53,374 nt of DNA from a virus (lineage: Duplodnaviria; Caudoviricetes). The DNA is taken from positions 1 to 53,374 of IMG/VR virus record IMGVR_UViG_3300034994_000033, one strand, 5' to 3'. The notes beneath the pieces were generated by a model. It saw only the letters and a program-made list of their open reading frames with translations. It was not told the DNA's origin and ran no database searches. A program made the translations under genes and the position numbers. This document shows positions 19,150-52,684 of this stretch, piece after piece (position 1 is the stretch's first letter; every line of letters begins with the position of its first letter).

Positions 19150-22100
19150 ATGTCGGTATCACCAAGCGCAACAGTAAAGATACTCACCAATGTTGGCGAT
19201 CCGCTCATGTCGTCTGACGGGACTCCCCTTGCCGGAGCCACGTTGACATTTCAGTTGGTTGATTTTCAGCGCAAAAAAGTGGTCTCGGTTTTTGATGTGG
19301 TTAGCGGGGAGTTGGTGTCTTCACTGCCGATAACGGCAATCACCAATGCGGCCGGAGAGATCAAAAACGCCGCAGGCACCGCTGACATTGCCTTGTGGCC
19401 CAACAGCCGGGGGGATGTTCCCACCTGTTACAAAGTAACTTGCAGCGACCCCGCTATCCAAAAAATATACATCATCGTTGATGAAGCTGTCGATACCACA
19501 TTGTTATCTGCAAAGCTGGCCTACGAAATCGGAGAAGGCGCAATCAGTCTGCCGGATATGCCTACCTCCCCGTTGCTTGACATCGCAATAGCCGCAACGG
19601 CAGGGGACAGGGTGCAGACCGGACTTGATCGGGTGCAAACCGCCCTCGACAGAGTAGCGACCGGTCAGGACAAAACCGCAACTGCGGCAGATCGGGTGCA
19701 AACCGCCCTCGACAGAGTAGCGACCGGTCAGGACAAAACCGCAACTGCGGCAGATCGGGTGCAAACCGCCCTCGACAGAACAAGCACCACCGAATCAGCT
19801 TCAGCTTCCGCTGCCAGTGCCGCCCTGGTGCAGCCACAACTCACAGCCTTTGGTGACAGGGTTGACGCTGTTGAAGTCGGGCAATCTGCTGCTGTCATCG
19901 GCTATGCTACGCAAGCTGCACTGTATGCCGACCTTGTCCCTGATGATAAATCGGTTGCCTATGTCACCAACGACGCAACCTCCGCCAACAACGGCACTTA
20001 TCGCAAAAGCGGTGCTACCGGCATTGGCGCTTGGGTACAAAGCAGCTTCGACCGGGTAGCGCTTGTAGAAGGCCGTGCCGCCACCCTTGAAAGCGGTGTT
20101 TCAGCCTTGGCGACGATAGGTCAGGACGTTTCAATCACCGTTAACATGACCGCCAAAACCATCACCGGCGGCGGGGGTCCCGTTTTTTACAAGGGAGGCT
20201 ACACGGTCATCCCATTGGCACAAAATGTCGCCTTCGCCTATACAAATCCCCCGGGATATGCAATGTTTTTGTACGCCGACAAAATCACCGGCGTGCTGGG
20301 TATAGCCGCTGATGCCGCACGTCCCCCAGTCGGTTCGGTCTTACTGGGTTTTATTTACGCGCAAAAAATCTACGCAAACGACCCTACCGGACAGATAAGG
20401 GTCATCCCCACCAGCTACGGAGTTGTAGGCGGTTTTGGTGAGCGGTGGGGCACCTATACCGGCAACATTGGCGGCCTCACTATCAATCAGCAGTCCAAGA
20501 CGATCACCACCGATTCCACGGGCGGAGCGCTGGTGCACAAGGGCGGGCTGGTAACCATCCCAGGCGGCCAGAACGTGTCCTACATTTTTGCCACCTCTAC
20601 CAATACGGGGTATTTGTTCGCTCACCCGGTCACCGGGGATCTTAATATGACCGACCTGGGGGCGCTGCCGCCGGTCGGGTTCCCGGTTATTGGCATGGTC
20701 AAAGGAGAACAGTTCTACTCCATTTCCCCTAGCCGTTTTATTAAATATATCAACGCAGGTGGGACGCTCCTGAGAGTGGACGGCCTGTCCCAGTGGCGGG
20801 ATCTGTTTGGCATGGTTGGGTCTGACGTGGATCTAACAATAAATCTGGCGGCAAAGACCGTCACGACATCTGCCGGTGGGGGGTTAATCCTCTCACAGGA
20901 AGGGTATGTTTCGCTGGCCGGTTCGCAGAACGTCAGTTTCACCCATACCAGCGCCAACTATCTGCTTTACGTTTACGCCGACAAAACTACTGGCATACTG
21001 GCCGCAATTCAGGCACCGGGTACTCCGCCGGTAAACTCGGTTTTGATTGCCATGAGCTACAGTCAAAAATTATATGCCAATGACCCTTACGGTAAAATAA
21101 CACTGCGTAACGCAGCCGGGGTTGCCCTCCCGTTTGGTCCCCCTGATGCACTTGGCATCATCAGCAAGGACGTTGGCGTCACGATCAATCTGGCGACAAA
21201 ACTGGTTACCACGGTCAGTACCACTAATGCGGCAGTATTCTTTAAAGACGGCTACGTCTATGTCCCCTCCGCACAGAGTGTAAGTTTTGCACAGACGTTG
21301 CCTACATATCTGCTCTATGTGTATATCGACAAAACCACGGGTGTTGTCGCCGCCGTCCAGTTGACCCCAACGTTCCCAGCCAACTCGGTATGTATCGCCA
21401 TTATTTACGGGCAGCAAATCTACGCCAATGATCCATATAAAAGAATATCTCTGTATGACGGTAGCGGGGACCTAGTTACATCGTTGGCGGGAGGACTGGC
21501 CCCCTTCAACGAATTAGCACACCGGCTGATCCTGCCTGATGCCATTTATTTTCTCCCCAACACGCCACTGGCGCTATTCAAGGCGCCTTGCTTCTCAGCC
21601 TATCAGTTCAGTCTGATGAGTCAGTTACGGCTCTGGTTGGACACCAAAGGATCAACAATTTCATCCCGCTTCCAATCGGTTGATGAAGTGTTACGACTCG
21701 ACCCCGCACAACTCGGCAGTACTTTCGAACTCGGGTTCAGACACGAATCCCAGCCGGACGTGCGCTACATCAAGCCGATTGTGAAGAATGTATCTGCCGA
21801 GGGGGCGCTGACTGGCCGAAACCTCAAGATGCTGGTGATTGGTGACTCGCTAACCGAAGGTCTGATGGCGGATGCCATCCAGGCCAATCTAAACGTCCAG
21901 GGCGCTACAGTGACTCCAGTAGGAACATATTTTGCTGCATCAACAAACTACCTACGGGGGGAAGGTCGTGGATTTTGGAACTACCGTTCTTTTATCGGCA
22001 AAGACAATTATAGTACCGGGATCGGAGCCCACACCCGCAGCAGCGGTGGTAAAACCGATACCACTAAATTCGAAAATCCGTTCCTCAAGCTGGCTGACGC

Positions 22101-22704
22101 AACAGATAAGTCCGAACGCCCCGACTGGTGCTTCCGGTTTACCGGGGTAGATCGCGAACTGTCATACACAGCAGATACAGATAAGACCGGGAATTTTTAC
22201 ATCTTTGATTTTGCCTGGTACCTGGCGCAGCATAGCGTTGACACGCCGGAATTCATCACTATCGCGCTGTCAACCAACGATATCAACCTAGATACGGGCG
22301 TCTACTCTAAAGCGGAGCGGCTCCAATACATGCGCCTCGGTCTGGAGATCATGGTTAAACAGATCAAAACAGCTTTACCTAACGTTGTCATCGGGGTCAT
22401 CCCCGCTCCAGCCTGGTCGAGTACAACAACCGGTGACCCGCGCTGGCAAGACGAAACGGCGGCGTGGATTGAAAACTGCATGTCTGATGTTCGCGCCCTG
22501 GCGGTGACCTATACCAAGCTCTATGTAGTACCGGTATGGCCTTTCATGTCCGAGGATTTCGCCTATCCGTATGTCACCGAGACCGACCTGTCGGCGGTCA
22601 ATAAAACCCAGAAAAAAACGATCGCCGATTGGGTGCATTTCGACGCGGCCGGGCGGGCGCAATATGCGGAGATAGTTGGAGCGTGGGTGGCTAACGTGGT
22701 GTAA
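19150..22704 (+). CDS. Tail fibre/spike with four internal beta-rich repeats and a C-terminal SGNH esterase domain
   Basis: Coiled-coil repeats; four ~115-aa repeats; VIGDSLT, ALSTND and DWVH SGNH blocks. Confidence 0.85.
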   Translation: MSVSPSATVKILTNVGDPLMSSDGTPLAGATLTFQLVDFQRKKVVSVFDVVSGELVSSLPITAITNAAGEIKNAAGTADIALWPNSRGDVPTCYKVTCSDPAIQKIYIIVDEAVDTTLLSAKLAYEIGEGAISLPDMPTSPLLDIAIAATAGDRVQTGLDRVQTALDRVATGQDKTATAADRVQTALDRVATGQDKTATAADRVQTALDRTSTTESASASAASAALVQPQLTAFGDRVDAVEVGQSAAVIGYATQAALYADLVPDDKSVAYVTNDATSANNGTYRKSGATGIGAWVQSSFDRVALVEGRAATLESGVSALATIGQDVSITVNMTAKTITGGGGPVFYKGGYTVIPLAQNVAFAYTNPPGYAMFLYADKITGVLGIAADAARPPVGSVLLGFIYAQKIYANDPTGQIRVIPTSYGVVGGFGERWGTYTGNIGGLTINQQSKTITTDSTGGALVHKGGLVTIPGGQNVSYIFATSTNTGYLFAHPVTGDLNMTDLGALPPVGFPVIGMVKGEQFYSISPSRFIKYINAGGTLLRVDGLSQWRDLFGMVGSDVDLTINLAAKTVTTSAGGGLILSQEGYVSLAGSQNVSFTHTSANYLLYVYADKTTGILAAIQAPGTPPVNSVLIAMSYSQKLYANDPYGKITLRNAAGVALPFGPPDALGIISKDVGVTINLATKLVTTVSTTNAAVFFKDGYVYVPSAQSVSFAQTLPTYLLYVYIDKTTGVVAAVQLTPTFPANSVCIAIIYGQQIYANDPYKRISLYDGSGDLVTSLAGGLAPFNELAHRLILPDAIYFLPNTPLALFKAPCFSAYQFSLMSQLRLWLDTKGSTISSRFQSVDEVLRLDPAQLGSTFELGFRHESQPDVRYIKPIVKNVSAEGALTGRNLKMLVIGDSLTEGLMADAIQANLNVQGATVTPVGTYFAASTNYLRGEGRGFWNYRSFIGKDNYSTGIGAHTRSSGGKTDTTKFENPFLKLADATDKSERPDWCFRFTGVDRELSYTADTDKTGNFYIFDFAWYLAQHSVDTPEFITIALSTNDINLDTGVYSKAERLQYMRLGLEIMVKQIKTALPNVVIGVIPAPAWSSTTTGDPRWQDETAAWIENCMSDVRALAVTYTKLYVVPVWPFMSEDFAYPYVTETDLSAVNKTQKKTIADWVHFDAAGRAQYAEIVGAWVANVV
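19627..19779 (+). repeat. 63-bp perfect tandem repeat (2.4 copies) in the tail fibre stalk
   Basis: Units start at 19627, 19690 and 19753; encodes DRVQTALDRVATGQDKTATAA. Confidence 0.95.
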
Positions 22705-28187: not shown

Positions 28188-28205
28188 TTGTCAAAGGGGA
28201 GTCTC

Positions 28206-31200
28206 GTGGCTGACTCGATAGTTTTATCAAAAGATGATGTCGGTGAAGATATTCTACAACCCAAATCTATCGTGTTGTCCATGGATGATGTCGGTACGGA
28301 TGTATTGCCTAAAGTGCGGAACCCCCGGGTTTTATCTAGTTCCGATCTTGGTCGAAACATTTTAGAACCAGAGCCAGTAGACTCTTCCAAAATAAAAATG
28401 TTCACCAATGACCGGGCCCGCACCGGCGGTATGCAGTCGGTCCTTGGTATTGCTTCGCAGTCGGACCGGAATGCGCGCGCTTTGGCCGATGATGTTTCCA
28501 ATGCCGTTGCCACTGCTCCGGCAACGGTTGTCTCTGGGGCCGTCCGGGGCGCCGGATCTTTGCAGGTGGCCGTGGCGCAGGCAAAAGCTCCGGGCTTTCT
28601 GCCGGGCATGGGGTACGTGGATAACTCCGGCAAGACCATTCCCGTTGATGATGGCGGCGATATATTCACCCCCCCGGATCGTTCTTACTATACAAAGCGC
28701 TATACCGGCATGGAGCGCAGCGGCTTTGACAAGATGGATCAGGCTGATGTCGTAATGGCGCAGATCAAGCAGGATGCGCCTGTTAGCAGCCCGATCGTGG
28801 ATAAATACCTGCGAGAAGGATTCAGTCAGGCTGGTAACATGCTCCCTACCCTGCCGCTTGCAGCCATCCCGGTTATCGGGCCTGAACTGTCCGTGCAGAT
28901 GATGGCCCGCGGCGCCGGTGCCGATGCGATCAAGAAAGGCCGTGAGATCGGTCTGACTGATGACGAGATAGATGATTACGTCAGCAAACAAGTCGGGCCG
29001 GAATATGTCGGTGAGAGGCTGTCAATAGGCCCGATGCTGGCAATGCTGAACAACAAGGTCCCTTTCTTTAAAGCACTCGGGACACACCAACTGGCGGAAA
29101 TCAGCAGCGAGATTGGGACGTCTCATTTTCAGCTTGCCGCTGATAAGGCGTATGAAAAGCCCGGCCTGTCCAGGGAAGAACGCAACCGTATTTATGATTC
29201 ATGGATAAACATGGACGCGCAGCGCAATGACCCCAAGGCAATGACGGAATGGGCCAACAACATGAAGGATACCGCTATCACCACGCTCGGCATGACACAC
29301 GTCATGGGCGCGGCCGGTGGAGCGCACCGTGTGGCGACAACAATTAGCGCTCCTGCTGAAACAGATGCAATAACCCGCGGAATGGATTTCACCGGCGCCG
29401 ATGAAGCGGCCCTTATTCGCTCAATGCCGCCCGAAAGAGCTGCGGCGTATCTGAAAAAGAAACAGCAAGCCGCCTCGGCACAAATACACGGTAACGAACC
29501 CCTCTCCTCCCCCCCCCCTGCAACTTCATACCAGAACGAAGGGTATGACGATATCGAAGATATGCCGGCGCCGAAGGGCCCATTGGAAAATGCGGCAAGC
29601 CAGGCGGTTACAACAACAGGACCGGATACGGCACCTGATAACATACCCCCGTTTACTCCTCCCGAAACTCCTGTCACCACAGAGTCCGTGCCGCCTATCG
29701 ATGTTTCGGGCGGTACGGCTCCCCCGTCTGCCGTCAGGGAAATAACCGATGCGGACCAGACCGATTTTGAGAATGCGGTGTTGTGGGAAATCAAGCTGCG
29801 CGAAAGCGGCCGATCGGCTGTACCGGATATTGAGGGCGAATCGGCAAGAGACCACGCCTGGCGTTTATTGGAAACGTATCGCAAGGCTATTACGCCGCTG
29901 GTCGCCGGGGATACGTCGGGCGCGGTGGAAGAAACACAGCACCCGGCCCCGGCGGCGCTGGCGGCCGGAGATACCAATGGCTTTTTGACTTCGCTCGGTT
30001 ATCCGAAAATCAGGAACGCCGACCACTTCGAAACGGGAGGGATCGGGGCAATAAAGAATAATGAATACGAATCGCCGCCAATGCCGGGCGACGTCGCTGA
30101 ATCGTTGATGGGTCAAGCCACTGCTGCCGGGCTTTCCGCAACGGCTGCACCGTACATGATGACTCGCAAAAAGCTGGACGGTTCTTTTGAAACCATCCCG
30201 GCGGGGTCCGGGCGGGTAACAGTAAAGATTTCACAGGCGCAGGAGAAACCCGATGGCGCTACAGATACAGTGCCCGCATTGCCAGGGGCGTCCGAAGTGG
30301 AACGGCCGGGAGTGGGAGTGCCCGAAGTGCAAGGCAAGGATACCGGATCAGAAAATAATTTACCTCAACCCGGAGGAATGAATAATGATCTGTCCAGCGT
30401 GCGGCAAGAAACAGGCGTCCCGCAAGAAGTGCCACCAGTGCGGGTCAGGGAAAATGCATCGATTGATGAAGCTGCGCATGCTGCCGCGACATCTCCACGG
30501 AATGACGTTCCGGAGCCGACGACCGCCCAGATCGAGGCCGGCAATTATAAAAAGGGACATGTCAACATCCATGGTCTTGATATCTCCATAGAGAACCCCG
30601 CCGGGTCATTGCGCAAGGGTGCCGATGAGAACGGCAAGTCCTGGCAGACCGAGATGGCGCACCATTACGGCTATATCAAGGGGACGATCGGCAAGGACAA
30701 GGATCATATCGACGTATTTGTCGGGCCGGATCAACAGAGCGGCAAGATATTCGTGGTTGACCAGATCGACCCGAAAACCGGCGAACTGGACGAGCACAAG
30801 GTGATGATGGGTTTTGGTTCTCTTCCGGCGGCCCGGGCCGGATATCTGGCAAATTATGATAAGACCGGCGCGCAGAGAATCGGCGCTATCACGGAAAGTT
30901 CCGTCGATGATTTCAAGCAGTGGCTTAAAGAGGGCGACACCAGGAAAGCCTTTGCCCCGCAAGTTACCAAGGTTACCACGGTAACCTCCGGGATTTCCAC
31001 CTCAGTCCGTCGTCAACTCGATACCTCAAAAGACAGCCTCCAGCTGGCCGTCGCCAAACTGGGGGGGATCAATCGTGCCGAGCTCGATCAGCAGACCGGT
31101 ACCGGCAAGGACCTGGCGCATACCCTGAACAGCATGGCCTCGAAAGAGGGGGGAACATTCCTGCATACCATCAAGAGTACCGGTCTGCCGCTGGACACGA

Positions 31201-34200
31201 TGCGCGAGGCGCTGGTGGAGAACGGCTATCTCAAGCCGGCCGACGATATCAACACCCTGCTGGACAAGCTGGACGGCGCTTCCCGCGGCGAGGTGCATCG
31301 CTCCACGCATGCGGCCGATACCGGGGATGCGGCGTACAGCGAGGCGGAAACGCGCTATGCCGAGATGATCGGCGCGATGACCAACGAAGAGTATGAGGAA
31401 TATTCCCGCAACCAGTGGCTCGATGAACAGGCGGAAGAGCTGGCCGCCGCCGCTGATATCATCGACGAATATCTGTCCGGATTTGACGAAGAGAAGATGA
31501 CCGCTGCCGACTGGCAGGAGGTTGAAAACGATCTTAAGGAGGCGCTGGATGCCGAAATCAGCAGCGGAAACATTGAAGAGAATAAAGAACCGGGCCAAGA
31601 AGATGCCGCCGGAGAAGCGCAAGGCGTTCATGTCGGCGGTGAAGGTGATACTGCGGACAAAAGTCAGGCAGGTACAGGAAAAAATGTAGAGCAGCAGAAC
31701 AAACTTTTCGCCACTCCCTCGACTTTCGGCACCAAGCCACAACCCAAGACCACAAACCGCGACGTTTCTACGTCCGGCTTATTGGATGGTTTCACCAAGG
31801 ATGATTCGGTGCAGCCGGGTCTGCCGGGCGGCACAACCGAAACAAAATCATTAACCGATAAGGTTAACGAAACCGAAAGCGCCCAGACGGATAATAGCGG
31901 GCCGGCGACCTCTTCAGAAAAAACAAAACTGGAAGATTTCGGCGAGAAGATCGGCGGGGCCCGTAAGGATTACGCGGCCAAGCTGGATCATGCCAAAACA
32001 CTTGATATTGCCACAGAGCCGTTTGCAAAGACGTGGCCGGAACCCGACTATCTCAAGATGCTGGCAGACGGTTTCGATGAGCAACATGTTTCTCTGGTTC
32101 GCGCCCTACGCGATGAAATCCCCGACAAGCCCCGCAAGTCATGGAAACTGCAACCATGGGTCAAGTTGGTTGAATCCCTGCGGGATCATGCTGAGTTAGC
32201 ATTGCAGGGCAAAAGTCCTGTTTTGTACAAGGTATTGAAAGAGACCGAATTCGTTAATTCCTCCGCACAAGATATCGCCGGCCGTGCCGAACTTTACCAC
32301 GCGGTAGGTCACGATGTTTCCCTGCGGGGCGTTACCCTCAAAAAGAACTTTTGGAATCTGTACCACGGCGAGAAGGATGTTACCAAGTGGCAGGTTGAAG
32401 GTAAACAGAAAGCAACCGCCTTCGGTAATATGCCGCGCGAATTGGGGATAGGTAACACCAAGGCCGAAGCGATAGATGACTTTAAATCAAAGATTTCTAC
32501 GCTGGCTCCGGGAGAAAAGGGTAAGAAAACAACCGAATTCATCATTTATCAGTACCGGGCAAAAGATAAACCCGGCCATTACATCGGCAAGAAGATCGGC
32601 CAGGATTATCTCGACCTGCAGAAGTTCGATGATGCCAAAGCTGCCCGGGAGTATCTGAACAGCCATCGGACAGAACTTGAAGCACAGCTTGCAAGTATGA
32701 AGAATGTTCCTAATGAACGCCGGGACGTCAATAACCCCCGTTCTGGTGAAGACTACCGAGGCGGCAAAGATGTGACGCCGGAGATGTTCACCAACTCCTT
32801 TGGGTTCAGAGGGGTCGAGTTCGGCAATTATGTAGAAGGTTCAAAGCGGCAGAACGATTTGAACAACGCCTTCGATGCCTTGAATGACCTGGCCGGCTTG
32901 CTGAATATACCGACTCAGGCTATATCCCTAAATGGTGAACTCGGGCTGGCATTCGGTGCAAGGGGCCATGGCGGCAAACACGCCGCTGCTGCGCACTATG
33001 AATCTGACAAAATCGTCATCAATCTGACCAAGAACCAGGGCGCCGGATCTTTGGCGCATGAATGGTTTCATGCGTTCGATAGTTATCTTTCCCGCACGCG
33101 CGGCTATAAAGGCGACTTCATTACCGACAAGACCGTCAAGTATGGTCCGGCGGATGGAACCCGGCAGGAGTTGATAGACGCTTTTATTGATCTCAGAAAA
33201 AACTTGAACGCCACCAACATGAAAACCCGTTCGCGGGAACTGGATAAAACCCGCAACAAGGATTACTGGTCAACCGGGATCGAGATGCATGCCCGGGCGT
33301 TTGAAAACTATGTAATCGACAAGCTGACCGACAGCAATACCAGCAATGATTATCTGGCCAACATCAACAGCGTATCCGAGTATGCCGATGCCATGCTTCA
33401 CGGTTTTATGACCGGCAAGACGGTTAACGATCTGTACCCGTACCTGCTGGATTCCGAGAAGGCGGCGGTCGTCAATTCTTTCGATAAACTGTTTGCAACG
33501 CTACAGACCAAACAGACCGACAAGGGCGTTGCCCTCTACTCCAACCCGCTGTTCGATCCCGCCCTGGTTGTATCCTCCCTCTCCGGGCTTGCCAAGAATC
33601 TGAAAGAGGATATTCCGAAGTTGGTCAAGTTGGGACAAGTCGTTATCCGTGAAGGCGCCGGGAAATATCAGCAGTTCCTGGCCGGGATGAAGCAATATCT
33701 CGGCGACAAATGGGACACATTCAAATTGCAGATGCTGAAGATTTATCACCAGGCGAAAGCGGCATACGCCAAGAGCTCCAACCCGCTGTTCGATCCCGCC
33801 CTGGTTGTATCCTCCCTCTCCGGGCTTGCCAAGAATCTGAAAGAGGATATTCCGAAATTGGTCAAGTTGGGACAAGTCGTTATCCGTGAAGGCGCCGGGA
33901 AATATCAGCAGTTCCTGGCCGGGATGAAGCAATATCTCGGCGACAAATGGGATGCCTTTAAATTGCAGATGTTGAAGGTTTATCACCAGGCGAAAGCGGC
34001 ATACGCCAAGAGCAGCACCGCCGAGAAAGAGGCGAACTTTGCCCTTGCACAGCCTGATAATAATGATATAGTTACAGAGAAAGGAGCCGCCCATGAATCA
34101 GACTCAGGAGAGTTCTATGTCCCCCGCCGAATATCAGAAACACGTGACGGAAATCGGGCGGAAAGAAATCGCGCTGATGCCGAAGCTGTTGCCAGGGCAG

Positions 34201-37200
34201 TTCAAGGCACAGTGCGAACGACTGAAGGCGCAGAATATCCCGAACCGGGATTAAACGAACTCAAAGGCGCCCAGAAGAAATTCTATGCGCGCCTCAAAGC
34301 TCTCGAAGAAACCGCCCTGTTGCAGCACATGCAGGAAACCGGGGAATTCCCCAGCGCCGGCTTTGTCGCCGCATGGAAACGTGAAGGTGAACAGGCCGGG
34401 ACAGAACACAAAGTAGCCGTTGCCCCGGATGGCCGCACGGTTCGCAAGTTCGGCGATGCCGCCGTCAACCACACCTGGACCGATTACCTCCAGCGTATCG
34501 CCCTCCATAACTCTTTATTCCCTCTCACTGAATATGAATACAAAGGCTTGTCCACGATAGCCGGCCACCTCCATGCCGTGGTCGATCAGGTGGCCATCGC
34601 CGGAGAAAACATCGTTCAGGCCAAGCAAGCCGATATCGATGCGGCCATGAAGGAACTCGGCTTTGAGCCGTTTATCCGCAGCCAGTATGCCGGCAAACCA
34701 ACCGAAGTATCCCCGATGGCCCGCCTGTGGGTACGCCGCTCCGACAATAAAGCCGTATGGGATATCCGCCCTGCCAATGTCCTGCAGAACTCCGATACCA
34801 AAACCCTCTATTTCATCGACCCGGTTGTCGAGCAGTTGCCGGACGGTTACGACATCGGCAAGCTGACGCCATTGGAGATCGGTGAAGACGGCGCGGTTGT
34901 CGGCTCCCGGTTTCAGTTCATCGATGGTGAAGTGGTGCCACGGGATGATGCTCAGTTCAAGTTGACCGGCTCCCCTGCGGTCTCCGGCGTCAAGGCCGTC
35001 GAGGCGCAAGCATGGGTCTCAACCCTCCCGATCGCCAAGCGGGTAAACGTCGTGCAATCGATCGACGACCTCCCCGCCGCAGCCCGTTCCGAAATCACCA
35101 AGGCCCAGGTCAACCCCGCCCGCGTGCAGGCCATGGAGCTGCAGGGCACCATTCACGTCATCGCCGATAACGTCCCGGATCTGCGCCGGGTCAAGGCGTT
35201 GGTCATCGGTCACGAGCTGGCCCACGCCGGGCAGACGGACAAGGTTGTCGATATCGCGGTGGACTGGTTCACCCGCAACAAGGATACCAAAACAGAGCAG
35301 GCGCTGGCAGCGCAGGCGATCCTGGAGAAAGTCGCGGCCGGGTACGGTTACAACCTGGATAATGTAAAGCAGTTCCGGCGTGCGGTACAGGAAGCGACGG
35401 CGGCGCTGGCCGAACAGGTGGCGGACGGCACGCTGAAGCCAATCGGGCTGATGCATCGGTTGATGCTGTACCTCAAGCACTGGCTGCGCCAGAACGGCCT
35501 TATTTCGCATGTCTCGGACAGCGAGCTGTATCAAGCCGTGGCCGAGATGCTGCGGATTGGGGAAAAGCGGTTGTCGGTGGGTAAGGGTGGTGATGAGGCG
35601 CAGTTTGCTGCTGCATGGCACGGCGGGCCGCATGACTTCAGCACGTTCGACTCTTCAAAAATAGGCACCGGTGAGGGTAACCAGGCTTATGGTTATGGGT
35701 TGTATTTTGCCGGCAACAAAGAAGTGGCGGAATTTTATAAAGATATGTTGTCGAAGAACCAGCGGGCATTTGATCCTGAATTGGTTGATGCAAAAGCAGG
35801 ACTTCGTGATGCCCTGGCGGAAGTCGACAACCTCGGATTTGATACTTTCGGTGAAGTGCTAAAGACACTCCGGCAGTACCCTCAAAACTGGTTTGATATG
35901 TATGAAGTAACGCCGGAAGAGGCGGCGACTATCAGCAAGTTTCTGGCGGCCTACGAGAAGCGAATAAAAGAAACGCAAGGCAAACTTTACCAGGTTGAAC
36001 TCGCCCCTTCCGAGGATGAATACCTATTGTGGGACAAGCCGCTATCGGAGCAGAGCGAAACGGTGAAAACTGCTCTGGCGGAGTATGGCGATTATCCCGG
36101 AACGCTGACAGGGAAACAGATATATAAGCAAGAAACTGGCGGGAACGCTGGTAATTCCAACTCTCCAATAGTTTCACAAGAACTCCACTCCCTCGGCATC
36201 CGTGGCATCAAATACCTAGACGGCACCAGCCGCGGCAAGGGCGAAGGCAATTATAACTACGTCATCTTTAATTCCGCAGACGTGGAGATCAAGGCCAAGT
36301 TCGCGCTGTCTGACGAGATAAAGTCCAACATCGAACGTGTCTCTGAATCAACCTTGCTGGGTAATCTGAAAGGCATCGTTGAACCCGGCACACTTGCCCG
36401 CTTCGCAAAAAATATCCCGGATGCTGAAGATGTAAAAGATACTCTCGCCAGCATTCTGGCAAACGATACTCTCTCTGGCTTCGCTCAGGATCATTTACAA
36501 ACGCCGCTAATGGTTACCGAGCAGCACCCTGATTTCCTGCCGGTGTATGAAACCGCCAAAGAGCGCGATGAAAACAAGATGAATTACGTTGTCAGGATGC
36601 TGGGCGGGCTTTTCGATAAAGAAGGGAAACCAGCACTATGGGATAAAGTCAAGGACACACTTTTTAACTGGGATACCGGCAAAGAGACCGCGTACGGGCA
36701 GCTGTTGCGCGAAACCAAGCTGACCAGCGAAGAGCGGCGCATGTACGATGAATTGGTGTTTGAAGCCGATATAATGGGGGCCGAATACAGTTCATTGGAA
36801 TATGCGAACCGGAATCCCCGCATAAAGAAAATGGACGTTACGCCTCGGGTTTTTGATTTCTATCAGAAATCCATGGCGCTCCAGGAGTCCGCCCGCAAGG
36901 TGCATATTGCCATAATAATCGAGCTTATGCACAAGGCCGGCGCTTCGCTGGAAAAAATAGCGGCTACTCTGGCCCGTAACCATGCCGAAACCGAAGATGT
37001 TTCGGAAGAAAGTCTCAAAAACGAACTTATGGAACTGATGGCGGAGATGGAGAAGGAAGGCAAGTCAATCGATACCATTGCCCGCCACGTCGCCGATTAT
37101 CGCGGCATGGTGTTAAAGCGCAAGGGGCGCGTGCATCGGAACCACGGCGAAGGGAACCGTACTGTAGATGTCTTTCACCACATTACCTCGCTTGATTTTG

Positions 37201-39440
37201 ACGCTGATACCGTAAGCAAGGAAACGGATGAATCCCGCAAGGCGCGGCAGAATAATCCGGGCGGAGAAAAGCAGACGGTGCGGGCCGATCGGGTGCGGCT
37301 ACCGGGATGGAACTTCCCCGGTAACGATGTCGTGAGGGAAATCAAGAAGATCGTAGATGAGTTGGAAGGGAGTTTCAAGCAGACTGACGACGGCGCGCTG
37401 ATCATGTTGTTTTCGAAGGGCGCCGGGGCAAAGGCGCTGCAACAGTTCAAGGATATCCGGTTGCTTGATGAGTCAGGCGCGGCGCTTCATAAAAACCTGG
37501 TCTACCGCCGTTTTGTAGCATCGAAAGGTACGGCGAGAAAACAGCTTCGCAATGTAAAGAAAGACCTGGCCGGCGCCATGCCGGTTCATTACAGGGATGG
37601 CCAGAAATATTCTGCATCTATCGGCTTCAAAGAGCAGGTAAGTGAAGATATGTACCGGGACGCAATCGGTGAAATGGCGACCGAACAGATTTTGAATGCC
37701 TCTATCAACAAAGCGTTGGCACATGGCGAGATTGGCAAAGACGAAGCCAAGGCAATGAAAGAAGCCTTTATACAGGACATTGCCGAATCCTTTATGGCCC
37801 GTGGAGCGGGATCATACCAAATCCGGCGATTGAATCGTCTGATCGAAGGTTATGACCGGACCGGTGCTTTGGGCAAGTTTGAGAGCTACGTACAAGGCGT
37901 CAGCGGGATGCTGTCAAAAGCGCAGTATTCCTTCGACCAGCATGAAAATCTGAAGCACGTCACGCCGGAAATGAAGGATTATGCCTATACCTATATCAAG
38001 GATACTCTCCGCAACATGGGGACCGGTGACCAATGGTCAGGCAATGCCCGGGCGATTGCGTCGATCTGGTATCTCGGCTACAACTTTTCCTGGATGCTGG
38101 TCAATTCGACTCAGCCTTATGTGCTGGGGCAGTCGGAGTTGTCGCGGGAGACCACAAGTCCGGTTATCAAGATTGCCAAGGCGGAGAAAGATATTCTGAC
38201 CGGTAATCTATCCGCCGAAGAGAAGTCGCTGTTTGATGAAATGTCGGTCCGCAGTTCGGATCACGATTCGGTCATGAACGAAATGGCCGGTGCCGGAGAT
38301 GGCGGCGATGGTAAGTGGTCTAGGCGCTTGGGCAAGGCCGTCCAGACATCGATGGCCGTTGGCCAGAAAATAGAGGTCTTAAACCGGCACACCATGATTC
38401 TTGCTGCCTATCGGGTGTTCAAGGGCGAGAAAGGCCAGGCGCAGGCTGAGGCGCTGAAAAATGCCCTGCGCGTCAACAGCATGGTCAATATCGACATGGG
38501 GCGCCACAATCTGCCGAAGTTTGCGCGGACCGCCTTGGGGAGAACCCTCTACACGTTGGCTTCGTATATCCAACATATGCTTAATCTTCTCTACCAAAGA
38601 AGCACCAGCGGCAACCGTGCCGATCAGAAAGCGGTACTGCGGCTGTTGTTCGCGATGTTCCTGCTGGGGGGCCTGCCTGCCGGGGCGCCGGGCAGTGATG
38701 AGCTGGACAAGCTGATTCTGAAGTTTTTTGGCTATTCGCCTAAACTGGCACTGAAAGCTTGGACGCGCAAACAGGCGGAAAATTATGATTCAGCCGGTGA
38801 GATGGTAGATGCCTTTCTCTGGCATGGCATGCCTGGTGCGGGTAAGCCGTTAGGTATCGGGGTGTCACTGACCGGGGCCACCCAGTTACGCGTCCCGATT
38901 ATTTCCAGCGTCATTGCCGGTGACGATATGACTAAGGCGGTGGGAGGCCCGATTGGCGGCTTGGTGTCTAAAGCCTGGATGGCCGGCAAGGCGGCCCAGC
39001 GTAACGATTATTGGCGGATGACCGAATATCTGATGCCGACTGCAATAGCCAATCCTCTGAGTGCGGTCAGGCAGGCGACCGATGGGGTCAAGACCGCCTC
39101 CGGCAAGCGGGTTGAATACAAGGGCAAGCAGTTGAAGATGGAACCACATGAAGCGGCGATAAGAGCCTTTGGCCTGCAGCCGGTCCGAACCGCCGATATC
39201 TCCGAGACGCGTGGTTTCGAAAAGGGCACCCAGGCCGAATGGAATGACCGCCGCAAGGATGCGCTGGACAACTACCGGATGAGCCGGCAGCTCAAGTATA
39301 TCCAGGAATTCAACAAGGGTCTGCGCGGCAGTCAGGCGCAGGGACTGGTATCGCCGATTACTCCGGAGTCGCTGGCGAACGTCTGGGGTAAAACCAACCA
39401 GAAGAAAAACAGATGGGAACGCGAGCACGGGGTTGATTAA
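28206..39440 (+). CDS. Giant polyvalent internal virion protein (~3,745 aa)
   Basis: PPase-like domain (GNYKKGH..HYGYIKGT..DHIDVF..DEHKV, ~30530-30930); LPD5-like EDFGEKIGGARKD; LPD1-like AFGARG..LAHEWFH; kinase-like GTEHKV..DIRPANV..FIDP (~34270-34830); HELAH zincin (35211); ART-like WHGGP..GEGNQAYGYGLYF (~35610-36300); helical C-terminus. Likely GTG start at 28206. Confidence 0.88.
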   Translation: MADSIVLSKDDVGEDILQPKSIVLSMDDVGTDVLPKVRNPRVLSSSDLGRNILEPEPVDSSKIKMFTNDRARTGGMQSVLGIASQSDRNARALADDVSNAVATAPATVVSGAVRGAGSLQVAVAQAKAPGFLPGMGYVDNSGKTIPVDDGGDIFTPPDRSYYTKRYTGMERSGFDKMDQADVVMAQIKQDAPVSSPIVDKYLREGFSQAGNMLPTLPLAAIPVIGPELSVQMMARGAGADAIKKGREIGLTDDEIDDYVSKQVGPEYVGERLSIGPMLAMLNNKVPFFKALGTHQLAEISSEIGTSHFQLAADKAYEKPGLSREERNRIYDSWINMDAQRNDPKAMTEWANNMKDTAITTLGMTHVMGAAGGAHRVATTISAPAETDAITRGMDFTGADEAALIRSMPPERAAAYLKKKQQAASAQIHGNEPLSSPPPATSYQNEGYDDIEDMPAPKGPLENAASQAVTTTGPDTAPDNIPPFTPPETPVTTESVPPIDVSGGTAPPSAVREITDADQTDFENAVLWEIKLRESGRSAVPDIEGESARDHAWRLLETYRKAITPLVAGDTSGAVEETQHPAPAALAAGDTNGFLTSLGYPKIRNADHFETGGIGAIKNNEYESPPMPGDVAESLMGQATAAGLSATAAPYMMTRKKLDGSFETIPAGSGRVTVKISQAQEKPDGATDTVPALPGASEVERPGVGVPEVQGKDTGSENNLPQPGGMNNDLSSVRQETGVPQEVPPVRVRENASIDEAAHAAATSPRNDVPEPTTAQIEAGNYKKGHVNIHGLDISIENPAGSLRKGADENGKSWQTEMAHHYGYIKGTIGKDKDHIDVFVGPDQQSGKIFVVDQIDPKTGELDEHKVMMGFGSLPAARAGYLANYDKTGAQRIGAITESSVDDFKQWLKEGDTRKAFAPQVTKVTTVTSGISTSVRRQLDTSKDSLQLAVAKLGGINRAELDQQTGTGKDLAHTLNSMASKEGGTFLHTIKSTGLPLDTMREALVENGYLKPADDINTLLDKLDGASRGEVHRSTHAADTGDAAYSEAETRYAEMIGAMTNEEYEEYSRNQWLDEQAEELAAAADIIDEYLSGFDEEKMTAADWQEVENDLKEALDAEISSGNIEENKEPGQEDAAGEAQGVHVGGEGDTADKSQAGTGKNVEQQNKLFATPSTFGTKPQPKTTNRDVSTSGLLDGFTKDDSVQPGLPGGTTETKSLTDKVNETESAQTDNSGPATSSEKTKLEDFGEKIGGARKDYAAKLDHAKTLDIATEPFAKTWPEPDYLKMLADGFDEQHVSLVRALRDEIPDKPRKSWKLQPWVKLVESLRDHAELALQGKSPVLYKVLKETEFVNSSAQDIAGRAELYHAVGHDVSLRGVTLKKNFWNLYHGEKDVTKWQVEGKQKATAFGNMPRELGIGNTKAEAIDDFKSKISTLAPGEKGKKTTEFIIYQYRAKDKPGHYIGKKIGQDYLDLQKFDDAKAAREYLNSHRTELEAQLASMKNVPNERRDVNNPRSGEDYRGGKDVTPEMFTNSFGFRGVEFGNYVEGSKRQNDLNNAFDALNDLAGLLNIPTQAISLNGELGLAFGARGHGGKHAAAAHYESDKIVINLTKNQGAGSLAHEWFHAFDSYLSRTRGYKGDFITDKTVKYGPADGTRQELIDAFIDLRKNLNATNMKTRSRELDKTRNKDYWSTGIEMHARAFENYVIDKLTDSNTSNDYLANINSVSEYADAMLHGFMTGKTVNDLYPYLLDSEKAAVVNSFDKLFATLQTKQTDKGVALYSNPLFDPALVVSSLSGLAKNLKEDIPKLVKLGQVVIREGAGKYQQFLAGMKQYLGDKWDTFKLQMLKIYHQAKAAYAKSSNPLFDPALVVSSLSGLAKNLKEDIPKLVKLGQVVIREGAGKYQQFLAGMKQYLGDKWDAFKLQMLKVYHQAKAAYAKSSTAEKEANFALAQPDNNDIVTEKGAAHESDSGEFYVPRRISETRDGNRAERNRADAEAVARAVQGTVRTTEGAEYPEPGLNELKGAQKKFYARLKALEETALLQHMQETGEFPSAGFVAAWKREGEQAGTEHKVAVAPDGRTVRKFGDAAVNHTWTDYLQRIALHNSLFPLTEYEYKGLSTIAGHLHAVVDQVAIAGENIVQAKQADIDAAMKELGFEPFIRSQYAGKPTEVSPMARLWVRRSDNKAVWDIRPANVLQNSDTKTLYFIDPVVEQLPDGYDIGKLTPLEIGEDGAVVGSRFQFIDGEVVPRDDAQFKLTGSPAVSGVKAVEAQAWVSTLPIAKRVNVVQSIDDLPAAARSEITKAQVNPARVQAMELQGTIHVIADNVPDLRRVKALVIGHELAHAGQTDKVVDIAVDWFTRNKDTKTEQALAAQAILEKVAAGYGYNLDNVKQFRRAVQEATAALAEQVADGTLKPIGLMHRLMLYLKHWLRQNGLISHVSDSELYQAVAEMLRIGEKRLSVGKGGDEAQFAAAWHGGPHDFSTFDSSKIGTGEGNQAYGYGLYFAGNKEVAEFYKDMLSKNQRAFDPELVDAKAGLRDALAEVDNLGFDTFGEVLKTLRQYPQNWFDMYEVTPEEAATISKFLAAYEKRIKETQGKLYQVELAPSEDEYLLWDKPLSEQSETVKTALAEYGDYPGTLTGKQIYKQETGGNAGNSNSPIVSQELHSLGIRGIKYLDGTSRGKGEGNYNYVIFNSADVEIKAKFALSDEIKSNIERVSESTLLGNLKGIVEPGTLARFAKNIPDAEDVKDTLASILANDTLSGFAQDHLQTPLMVTEQHPDFLPVYETAKERDENKMNYVVRMLGGLFDKEGKPALWDKVKDTLFNWDTGKETAYGQLLRETKLTSEERRMYDELVFEADIMGAEYSSLEYANRNPRIKKMDVTPRVFDFYQKSMALQESARKVHIAIIIELMHKAGASLEKIAATLARNHAETEDVSEESLKNELMELMAEMEKEGKSIDTIARHVADYRGMVLKRKGRVHRNHGEGNRTVDVFHHITSLDFDADTVSKETDESRKARQNNPGGEKQTVRADRVRLPGWNFPGNDVVREIKKIVDELEGSFKQTDDGALIMLFSKGAGAKALQQFKDIRLLDESGAALHKNLVYRRFVASKGTARKQLRNVKKDLAGAMPVHYRDGQKYSASIGFKEQVSEDMYRDAIGEMATEQILNASINKALAHGEIGKDEAKAMKEAFIQDIAESFMARGAGSYQIRRLNRLIEGYDRTGALGKFESYVQGVSGMLSKAQYSFDQHENLKHVTPEMKDYAYTYIKDTLRNMGTGDQWSGNARAIASIWYLGYNFSWMLVNSTQPYVLGQSELSRETTSPVIKIAKAEKDILTGNLSAEEKSLFDEMSVRSSDHDSVMNEMAGAGDGGDGKWSRRLGKAVQTSMAVGQKIEVLNRHTMILAAYRVFKGEKGQAQAEALKNALRVNSMVNIDMGRHNLPKFARTALGRTLYTLASYIQHMLNLLYQRSTSGNRADQKAVLRLLFAMFLLGGLPAGAPGSDELDKLILKFFGYSPKLALKAWTRKQAENYDSAGEMVDAFLWHGMPGAGKPLGIGVSLTGATQLRVPIISSVIAGDDMTKAVGGPIGGLVSKAWMAGKAAQRNDYWRMTEYLMPTAIANPLSAVRQATDGVKTASGKRVEYKGKQLKMEPHEAAIRAFGLQPVRTADISETRGFEKGTQAEWNDRRKDALDNYRMSRQLKYIQEFNKGLRGSQAQGLVSPITPESLANVWGKTNQKKNRWEREHGVD
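30253..30381 (+). CDS. Overprinted (+1 frame) 42-aa zinc-ribbon microprotein
   Basis: AGGAG RBS 7 nt upstream; MALQIQCPHCQGRPKWNGREWECPKCKARIPDQKIIYLNPEE. Confidence 0.6.
   Translation: MALQIQCPHCQGRPKWNGREWECPKCKARIPDQKIIYLNPEE
30385..30591 (+). CDS. Overprinted (+1 frame) 68-aa zinc-ribbon microprotein
   Basis: GGAGG RBS; MICPACGKKQASRKKCHQCGSGK... Confidence 0.55.
   Translation: MICPACGKKQASRKKCHQCGSGKMHRLMKLRMLPRHLHGMTFRSRRPPRSRPAIIKRDMSTSMVLISP
31549..31689 (+). CDS. Overprinted (+1 frame) 46-aa basic helical microprotein
   Basis: TAAGGAGG RBS; MPKSAAETLKRIKNRAKKMPPEKRKAFMSAVKVILRTKVRQVQEKM. Confidence 0.5.
   Translation: MPKSAAETLKRIKNRAKKMPPEKRKAFMSAVKVILRTKVRQVQEKM
33539..34012 (+). 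repeat. 237-bp (79-aa) near-perfect tandem duplication inside the giant gene
   Basis: Units 33539-33775 and 33776-34012; only a handful of substitutions. Confidence 0.95.
34045..34072 (+). promoter_or_regulatory. Putative internal sigma70 promoter inside the giant gene
   Basis: TTGCAC-16 nt-TATAGT with TGn extended -10, just upstream of AAGGAG and ATG 34093. Confidence 0.55.
34093..34254 (+). CDS. Overprinted (+1 frame) 53-aa protein just before the kinase-like domain
   Basis: Own promoter-like element and AAGGAG RBS; MNQTQESSMSPAEYQKHVTEIGRKEIALMPKLL... Confidence 0.55.
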   Translation: MNQTQESSMSPAEYQKHVTEIGRKEIALMPKLLPGQFKAQCERLKAQNIPNRD

Positions 39441-41537: not shown

Positions 41538-41801
41538 ATGGAAAAGGAATACATCGAAATCCTCAGGCCGTGCTTGCATTTCCAGGGGATACAGATAAAG
41601 AGCCCGGAAGCCTTCAGAACTTTTGCAGCTGCGGTTGATGTGATCGAGGGCACGGCCGGAATACATTCATGCAGGATCAGCATGGAAGAAATATTCGTCT
41701 GCCCCGATATTGTTTTTGGTGAGATAGAGAGCCCAACGCCAATGGAAAAACTCTTGATAGAGTTGATTGAATCAATGGCCTGCAAGGGCCGGGATCTGTA
41801 A
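41538..41801 (+). CDS. Hypothetical protein
   Basis: Abuts the endolysin stop. Confidence 0.6.
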   Translation: MEKEYIEILRPCLHFQGIQIKSPEAFRTFAAAVDVIEGTAGIHSCRISMEEIFVCPDIVFGEIESPTPMEKLLIELIESMACKGRDL

Positions 41802-41802
41802 C

Positions 41803-42078
41803 ATGGGAAAGCTTCTTTGCCTTCCAACTTCTACTGAGCGTGGGCCTCACTTTTCAGGAGAGGCCCATTGTCTCCACTGTAAGCACGAATGGATTGCCGT
41901 CGCCCCTGTTGGGACGATAGAACTTGAGTGCCCGGAATGCAAAACCATGAAAGGGCTCTTGCGCTACGGCTGCGAACCTGAAACCGCCTGGGTCTGTGGC
42001 TGTGGTTGCCATCTGTTTATGATCTCTCCACAAGGCACGATCTGCTGGAAGTGTGGTGAGTATCAGGTGGGTTTTTAA
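41803..42078 (+). CDS. Cys-rich double zinc-ribbon protein
   Basis: CLHC, CPEC, CGCGC, CWKC. Confidence 0.7.
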   Translation: MGKLLCLPTSTERGPHFSGEAHCLHCKHEWIAVAPVGTIELECPECKTMKGLLRYGCEPETAWVCGCGCHLFMISPQGTICWKCGEYQVGF

Positions 42079-52320: not shown

Positions 52321-52435
52321 GCCCCGGAGGGGCGCTCGCAACCAATGTAAGCAAGTGGGGGTGGGGTCGATTCGGAACCTCGCCGCTTTTGACTCAAAAC
52401 AGTTTGTTGGCCGGAACGGCCATAAGGGGGTTGGT

Positions 52436-52684
52436 GTGAAACCTAGATTGAAATGTGATAATTGCGATTGGACTCAACAGACTGAATCATGCAAAGAAGC
52501 GGCAACTTGGCTGAATAAGCAGTGCCCTGCTTGTGGCAAGTGTGAAATTGTATCTATGGCGGATTTAATGGTACTGGCACAAATCCAGGGGTTAGAAGAT
52601 TTTGGCCTTGCTGGAGAGTCTGACTCTGTTTTGGATGGAGAATCGGTACGGTATGAAATTGATACTGCCGTGCTCCGTGGTTGA
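52436..52684 (+). CDS. Cassette gene, zinc-ribbon protein
   Basis: AAGGGGG RBS, GTG start; CDNC, CPAC. Confidence 0.7.
   Translation: MKPRLKCDNCDWTQQTESCKEAATWLNKQCPACGKCEIVSMADLMVLAQIQGLEDFGLAGESDSVLDGESVRYEIDTAVLRG

Follow-up and report, generated by a model that had tools for sequence, protein, structure and literature searches.

Two nested reading frames in a polyvalent protein gene

The stretch of DNA analyzed here (hereafter, the window) is a 53,374-base virus record from IMG/VR (IMGVR_UViG_3300034994_000033), with an estimated completeness of 99%. Its plus strand carries a giant open reading frame (ORF; 28188-39440) of 3750 amino acids (aa), counted from the first TTG, which represents a phage polyvalent protein according to Pfam. 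Within this gene, on the same strand and in the +1 frame, lie two adjoining small ORFs, each encoding a peptide with paired CxxC knuckles. These candidate microgenes are the subject of this report: their conservation, the selection that acts on them, and how they might have come to lie inside the giant gene.

ORF1 (30253-30381, plus strand), which we also call ZnR1, encodes 42 aa that begin MALQIQCPHC and carry the motif CPHC-x12-CPKC. ORF2 (30385-30591, plus strand), or ZnR2, encodes 68 aa that begin MICPACG and continue to a CHQCG, giving the motif CPAC-x9-CHQC. A Shine-Dalgarno (SD)–like AGGAG (30241-30245) is located 7 nucleotides (nt) upstream of the ORF1 ATG. The SD sequence of ORF2, GGAGG (30372-30376), falls within the last codons of ORF1, 8 nt upstream of the ORF2 ATG. 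Only 3 nt separate the stop of ORF1 from the start of ORF2 (0 to 3 nt overall). A preliminary description of this DNA had reported the same coordinates, cysteine motifs, frame, SD spacing, and 3-nt gap, all of which are borne out in the window. It had also placed the pair on a low-complexity linker ahead of a PPase-like domain. Here too we agree, as the main frame over the microgenes is a Pro/Gly/Glu/Val-rich stretch that precedes a Pfam InPase domain (30525-30929, plus strand; residues 780-914; PF18823, E = 6e-54).

Across all six frames of the 53-kb window, there are just eight CxxC-x5-30-CxxC motifs, of which ORF1 and ORF2 supply two, side by side. The pair could in principle be chance frame noise in a GC-moderate linker, given that alternative-frame ORFs of 40 to 70 codons are common here. 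However, the scarcity of the double motif, together with the conservation of the pair in other contigs and its frame-specific selection statistics (see below), makes this explanation hardly credible.

Conservation and selection in the +1 frame

In 6/6 contigs, namely the window and five relatives (L004, L005, L006, L026, and L176), a giant open ORF carries ZnR2 in its +1 frame. The first three relatives were recovered by a back-translation search with ORF2, L026 by a survey of the best 80 of 451 InPase loci, and L176 by searching, with a profile, 21 long records that share a related capsid protein (21 of the 80 relatives kept; 225 were found). ZnR1 occurs in three contigs: the window, L006 (42 aa), and L176 (43 aa, with a GTG start). 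The carriers are diverged from one another, with 62 to 63% identity in TerL and 67 to 84% identity in the major capsid protein.

Gene signals are retained throughout. Over the three copies of ORF1 and six of ORF2, with four cysteines in each, all 36 Cys codons are kept. Eight of the nine copies start with ATG and one with GTG, and a GGAG-type site lies 4 to 9 nt upstream of every start. For ORF2, this GGAG(G) is found at that distance in 6/6 contigs despite differing main-frame residues, while the counterpart of the ORF1 SD sequence is AAGGGGA in L006 and GGGAGGGA in L176. The preliminary description had left it to homologous giant genes to show whether the Cys codons and SD sequences persist; both do, in six contigs for ORF2 and three for ORF1.

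Upstream of eight of the nine starts, an in-frame stop codon occurs within 0 to 9 codons, and the ninth has one 25 codons upstream. Thus, the peptides are not frameshift extensions that begin far upstream. This bears on a possible origin by programmed frameshifting, which would yield truncated isoforms of the giant protein that end in a zinc ribbon. Phage structural modules often yield frameshift products, and the gene whose +1 frame holds the ORFs is a translated one. However, the nearby stops would confine any shift to a few non-conserved codons, each copy carries a start and an SD sequence of its own, and no shared slippery heptamer was seen by eye in the aligned sequences. We regard programmed frameshifting as very unlikely.

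Conservation of ORF2 is restricted to its first part. The six ORF2 copies encode 68, 44, 28, 52, 26, and 23 aa, and only M-x-CPxCGKKQxxRKKCHQCG and approximately three further residues are kept. In the window, this core spans 30385-30453 (plus strand), and it is present in all six contigs. The long tail (approximately 30454-30591, plus strand, with its TAG at 30589-30591) runs over the beginning of the InPase module, which is conserved, and lies outside the conserved unit of ORF2. ORF2 as a whole had been put forward as a gene; its first ~23 residues are indeed conserved elsewhere, but the 45-aa tail has a different length and sequence in each relative.

The limits of the conserved block coincide with those of the microgenes. 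Homology to L006 covers 30240-30455 (plus strand), from the ORF1 SD/ATG to just past ZnR2. Ungapped identity to L006 is 0.27 to 0.37 upstream, 0.72 to 0.78 within the block, and 0.25 to 0.45 downstream, and it returns to background within approximately 70 nt of the end of ZnR2. Between contigs in general, identity upstream is at background (0.16 to 0.37) and rises to 0.63 to 0.78 from the microgene SD/ATG on. As homology begins at the microgene start signals and drops after ZnR2, the conserved unit is the cassette rather than the linker.

We find that variation within this unit follows the codon structure of the small frame. Among the five alignable ZnR2 cores, 6, 3, and 13 of 18 columns are variable at positions 1, 2, and 3 of the ZnR frame, respectively (position 3 versus positions 1 and 2: 13/18 versus 9/36; Fisher P = 0.0013). 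The three ORF1 sequences show the same pattern, with 13, 11, and 23 of 41 columns variable (23/41 versus 24/82; P = 0.006). Position 3 of the ZnR frame is position 1 of the main frame, so that these changes are mostly replacements in the giant protein. Accordingly, NG86 estimates for ORF2 give nonsynonymous divergence (dN) of 0.06 to 0.12 and synonymous divergence (dS) of 0.8 to saturated in the ZnR frame, versus dN of 0.23 to 0.31 and dS of 0.04 to 0.16 in the main frame. With an OLGenie-style count of site classes in the two frames, ORF1 has a small-frame omega of 0.26 (3 pairs) and the ORF2 core one of 0.09 (10 pairs); the corresponding main-frame values are 1.5 over ORF1 and 2.0 over the ORF2 core. 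In 12 of the 13 single pairs, the one-sided Fisher test falls below 0.05. Because synonymous sites of the +1 frame are near saturation, the block is not merely a recent transfer.

The main frame bears the reciprocal mark of this constraint. Where main-frame residues are identical, the same codon is used at 21 of 24 sites over ORF1 (window versus L006) and at 12/13, 12/14, and 12/13 sites over ORF2, compared with a share of 0.42 to 0.48 in the remainder of the giant gene. An internal control for this synonymous suppression comes from L004 and L005: neither contains ORF1, and their segment corresponding to it has no excess of shared codons (4/7 and 4/10, respectively). When every 21-codon window over the aligned giant genes was scanned, the ZnR segments ranked top in 3/3 pairs. 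Against L006, the third-ranked peak of main-frame synonymous conservation lies at 29664-29735, where 10 of 11 codons are the same. The +1-frame ORFs of that region, 29545-29745 and 29749-29988, were dismissed as noise, being Arg-rich and not conserved in L006.

These data show that purifying selection acts on the +1 frame and that main-frame residues are free to vary. A frame-specific dN/dS comparison across homologous giant genes had been proposed as a check in the preliminary description, and its outcome is that the +1 frame is constrained whereas the residues of the main frame are not. Likewise, the judgment that two such ORFs in a row are unlikely to be frame noise is upheld by their recurrence in diverged contigs and by the frame-specific substitution statistics.

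Alternatively, the block might be conserved as nucleic acid, either as a recombination linker between polyvalent modules or as an RNA structure, in which case the zinc-ribbon frame would be incidental. It is located where flanking modules differ between contigs, and ZnR2 carriers do not form one clade in the InPase tree (82 rows; three changes, at least two of them forced), both of which would suit such an element. However, the substitutions have a three-base period in the +1 frame (TGT/TGC, AAA/AAG, CAC/CAT, and GGG/GGA swaps, and K/R replacements), and starts, stops, and SD sites are kept. In an element conserved at the sequence level, substitutions would not avoid the first two codon positions of a single frame, here one in which dS ranges from 0.8 to saturated. 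Conservation as nucleic acid is therefore quite improbable.

A dual-constraint test indicates that the main frame is nevertheless kept open. When synonymous codons of the peptides were resampled from phage codon usage, the main frame remained open over the two-gene cassette in only 8.3% of resamplings for the window and 5.8% for L006 (~40% for ZnR2 alone). In reality, it is open in 6/6 contigs. Both frames are thus maintained, with the giant protein needing only an open linker of no particular sequence.

Status, products, and origin of the cassette

Conserved cysteines, starts, and SD sequences, together with purifying selection in the +1 frame, support the earlier proposal that these are hidden genes. 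We consider it quite probable that ORF1 and the initial ~23 codons of ORF2 represent real coding microgenes, which form a two-gene cassette in the +1 frame of a polyvalent-gene linker. Several observations weigh against this. The cassette is rare, occurring in 2 of the 80 best InPase loci and in 1 of the 21 long capsid-protein relatives. The sample comprises six contigs for ORF2 and three for ORF1, all metagenomic, with segments of only 18 and 41 codons, and the pairs are not independent because the contigs are related by descent. The single pair that falls short of significance is L006/L176 over the ORF2 core (P = 0.21). A product of 23 to 28 aa is at the lower size limit of folded proteins, and no Pfam, NCBIfam, or PHROG model matches at threshold (the NCBIfam and PHROG comparisons cover the zinc ribbons other than that of L026). 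The sole hint of expression is a 184-nt metatranscriptome contig identical to 30181-30364, possibly DNA carry-over. A promoter and terminator scan of 29600-30800 gave one weak promoter-like site versus 0.5 expected, so no internal promoter stands out there. Finally, no stand-alone or in-frame homologue was found in the non-exhaustive searches described below.

Some of these points would also fit relics, that is, once in-frame zinc ribbons or free genes that are no longer expressed. The limited hint of expression, the absence of the cassette from most relatives, and the freely varying ORF2 tail all lean that way. However, +1-frame purifying selection persists across lineages near synonymous saturation, whereas a relic would be expected to have lost a Cys codon, a start, or an SD sequence in some of the six lineages. 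Furthermore, no in-frame (frame 0) zinc-ribbon motif was found near InPase in 80 loci. On this evidence, relics are an unlikely explanation.

A check for stand-alone homologues by tblastn had been suggested; run against 50,697 GenBank phage records, it gave only matches with E of at least 1 for ORF1 and none for ORF2. A word-based protein search with ORF1, confined to proteins of similar length, found nothing. The ORF1 profile had 12 matches at E ≤ 1e-3 among 1.84 billion representatives, all of them multi-knuckle proteins aligned to profile positions 1-35; none extends to the conserved C-terminal IYLNPE. The ESM Atlas yielded generic zinc-ribbon clusters of ~46 aa only. At the DNA level, a degenerate ZnR2 pattern recovered three known carriers alone from viral contigs, one known carrier and two chance matches from metagenomes (scanned with a single strict pattern), and one chance match from genomes. 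A pattern for the ORF1 C terminus recovered one known carrier and one chance match. A search for related loci that used the first 650 residues of the giant protein returned nothing.

We find that both products have the layout of a zinc ribbon, with two CxxC knuckles around a short predicted hairpin, a spacing of x12 (ORF1) or x9 (ORF2), and invariant cysteines. Each product would fold as a single four-cysteine zinc ribbon. AlphaFold2 models ORF1 as a small beta unit with short strands (mean pLDDT 84.5). The top Foldseek matches of this model are zinc ribbons, although weak (E of at least 0.36), and its structural neighbors include the zinc ribbons of RNA polymerase I A12.2, TFS4, YfgJ, and PhnA. 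For ORF2, pLDDT is 74 to 81 over the first 20 residues and 53 to 58 in the tail. The best sub-threshold model scores also point to zinc ribbons (Pfam Zn_ribbon_TiaS, 21.2 versus a cutoff of 27.3 bits; NCBIfam MJ0042_CXXC, 20.8 versus 20.9), and PHROG matches have E ≥ 0.01. ZnR2 is strongly basic, with a KKQxxRKK loop. From this basicity, and from composition and context generally, we tentatively suggest that the microproteins could be small nucleic-acid–binding or regulatory/anti-defence factors made together with the virion proteins, a role that we hold to be possible but short of probable.

Given that the scan revealed no conspicuous internal promoter, the mRNA of the giant gene is probably the template from which the microgenes are translated. 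Ribosomes would then start at internal sites on this mRNA, and translation of ORF2 is probably coupled to that of ORF1, as the stop and start codons are 0 to 3 nt apart.

The giant genes that carry the cassette in the relatives (L006, 4023-12113; L004, 4407-12209; L005, 4692-12209; L176, 3-3077) vary in their domains. They encode GGDEF, RadC-like JAB, C-5 DNA methylase, Methyltransf_23, LPD1, and Kinase-PolyVal domains. In L176, ~130 extra residues separate ZnR2 from InPase, and InPase was not found in the covered part of the L006 giant gene. The scattered occurrence of ZnR2 carriers and their differing flanks fit either repeated loss or cassette movement by recombination.

The cassette likely originated as a pre-existing pair of small genes that the giant ORF came to read through in another frame; de novo birth of the small ORFs inside the linker is less likely. 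The preliminary description had raised such absorption by read-through. The boundary at the microgene starts, the open but unconstrained main frame, and the differing flanks speak for it, although the searches described above found no stand-alone copy. More broadly, giant polyvalent genes might swallow small genes, with a mobile cassette moving between differently built genes and the microproteins acting with, or on, the injected giant protein. If so, the microproteins could be, for example, zinc-dependent partners, regulators, or anti-defence factors. This broader scenario is speculative, and we rate it as rather doubtful.

The remainder of the giant gene and its surroundings are those of a phage polyvalent protein. 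The preliminary description had named its product a giant ejection protein; the Pfam domains identify it as polyvalent. InPase, LPD5, LPD1, and Kinase-PolyVal domains score above Pfam cutoffs (ART-PolyVal is sub-threshold), and terminase, portal, major head, internal virion protein, and tail-fibre genes lie upstream. The host gene thus combines many effector and LPD domains with a virion-gene context. Inside it, at 33539-34013, a 237-nt unit occurs in two tandem copies that are 97% alike and encode two near-identical blocks of ~79 aa, reflecting either recent duplication or an artefact of assembly. Within a 1184-aa ORF (19150-22704) that has no PHROG match, a 63-nt unit is perfectly repeated in tandem (19627-19779; 2.4 copies).

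An 11-nt perfect inverted repeat flanks the cassette (30197-30207 and 30595-30605), with both arms encoding PAGS in the main frame. With ~0.1 such pairs expected by chance in 900 nt, it was set aside. Two ordinary-looking small ORFs on the plus strand (41767-42078, 103 aa; 52355-52684, 109 aa) also have a CxxC..CxxC arrangement, with no evident likeness to ORF1 or ORF2. DNA nearly identical to 29500-31500 is present in contigs of several sediment-metagenome runs from different studies (word shares of 1.00, 0.64, and 0.29). Where contigs of four runs cover this region (80% likeness; partial coverage), no variant letters were seen.

Comparison with known systems

Phage genes embedded out of frame in larger genes are well known: lambda Rz1 lies inside Rz, in its +1 frame, and phiX174 E lies inside D. 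As in Rz1/Rz and E/D, a complete small gene that has a start codon and ribosome-binding site to itself would be nested within a larger one read in a different frame, and both frames are maintained. At the level of sequence, the microgenes show the features of an embedded gene: they lie wholly within a larger ORF of the same strand, carry their own initiation signals, and are under purifying selection, and the host frame is maintained as well. Unlike Rz1/Rz and E/D, the cassette consists of two tandem microgenes in a linker of an 11-kb polyvalent gene, and their products are predicted zinc ribbons rather than lysis proteins. In a further difference, the embedded frame carries the selection, while host residues are unconstrained (omega of 1.5 to 2.0) beyond the need for openness. 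The comparative signal is unusually clear, and the polarity of classic overprinting is inverted in it, with a tiny embedded frame constrained and an 11-kb gene merely threading through it.

Iyer et al. 2017 (PMC5512222) set out the architecture of polyvalent proteins in phages and conjugative elements. As in the proteins treated there, the giant protein combines InPase, LPD5, LPD1, and Kinase-PolyVal domains in a virion module. The embedded out-of-frame genes have no counterpart in the main text of this article, from which the terms “overlapping,” “frameshift,” “zinc ribbon,” “ZnR,” and “Zn-ribbon” are absent. No account of genes nested out of frame in those for polyvalent proteins turned up in the literature covered, at the level of abstracts and of passages from PMC5512222.

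The predicted products resemble generic zinc ribbons (Zn_ribbon_TiaS, Zn_ribbon_3, Zn_ribbon_8, MJ0042_CXXC, and FmdB-type) in their small size, predicted beta-hairpin, and CxxC knuckles 9 to 12 residues apart. They differ from these families in that no model reaches its cutoff, and matches of the ORF1 profile are at the level of the knuckles only. They may represent two new families of zinc-ribbon microproteins linked to phage polyvalent proteins.

A further parallel is Com of phage Mu, a small zinc-finger protein that activates translation and whose gene overlaps the beginning of mom. Here too, a gene for a small four-cysteine protein overlaps a gene of anti-restriction function, a likeness that we take as a lead only. 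The geometry of the overlap differs, and the Com family is not among the seven Pfam families listed for ORF2.

Because gene callers never output nested out-of-frame ORFs, microproteins of this kind are invisible in phage annotation. The case therefore bears on whether the disordered linkers of giant virion proteins hold further coding layers. It also provides a test case for how modular giant anti-defence proteins are assembled, whether through fusions that span small genes or through insertion of cassettes into linkers. If giant genes do swallow cassettes, and do so generally, then the linkers of giant phage proteins would be a hiding place for unannotated microgenes. Embedded overlapping genes are, in themselves, an established feature of phages; what sets the present locus apart is the tandem zinc-ribbon cassette, the selection on the small frame, and a giant gene that reads through it as a linker.

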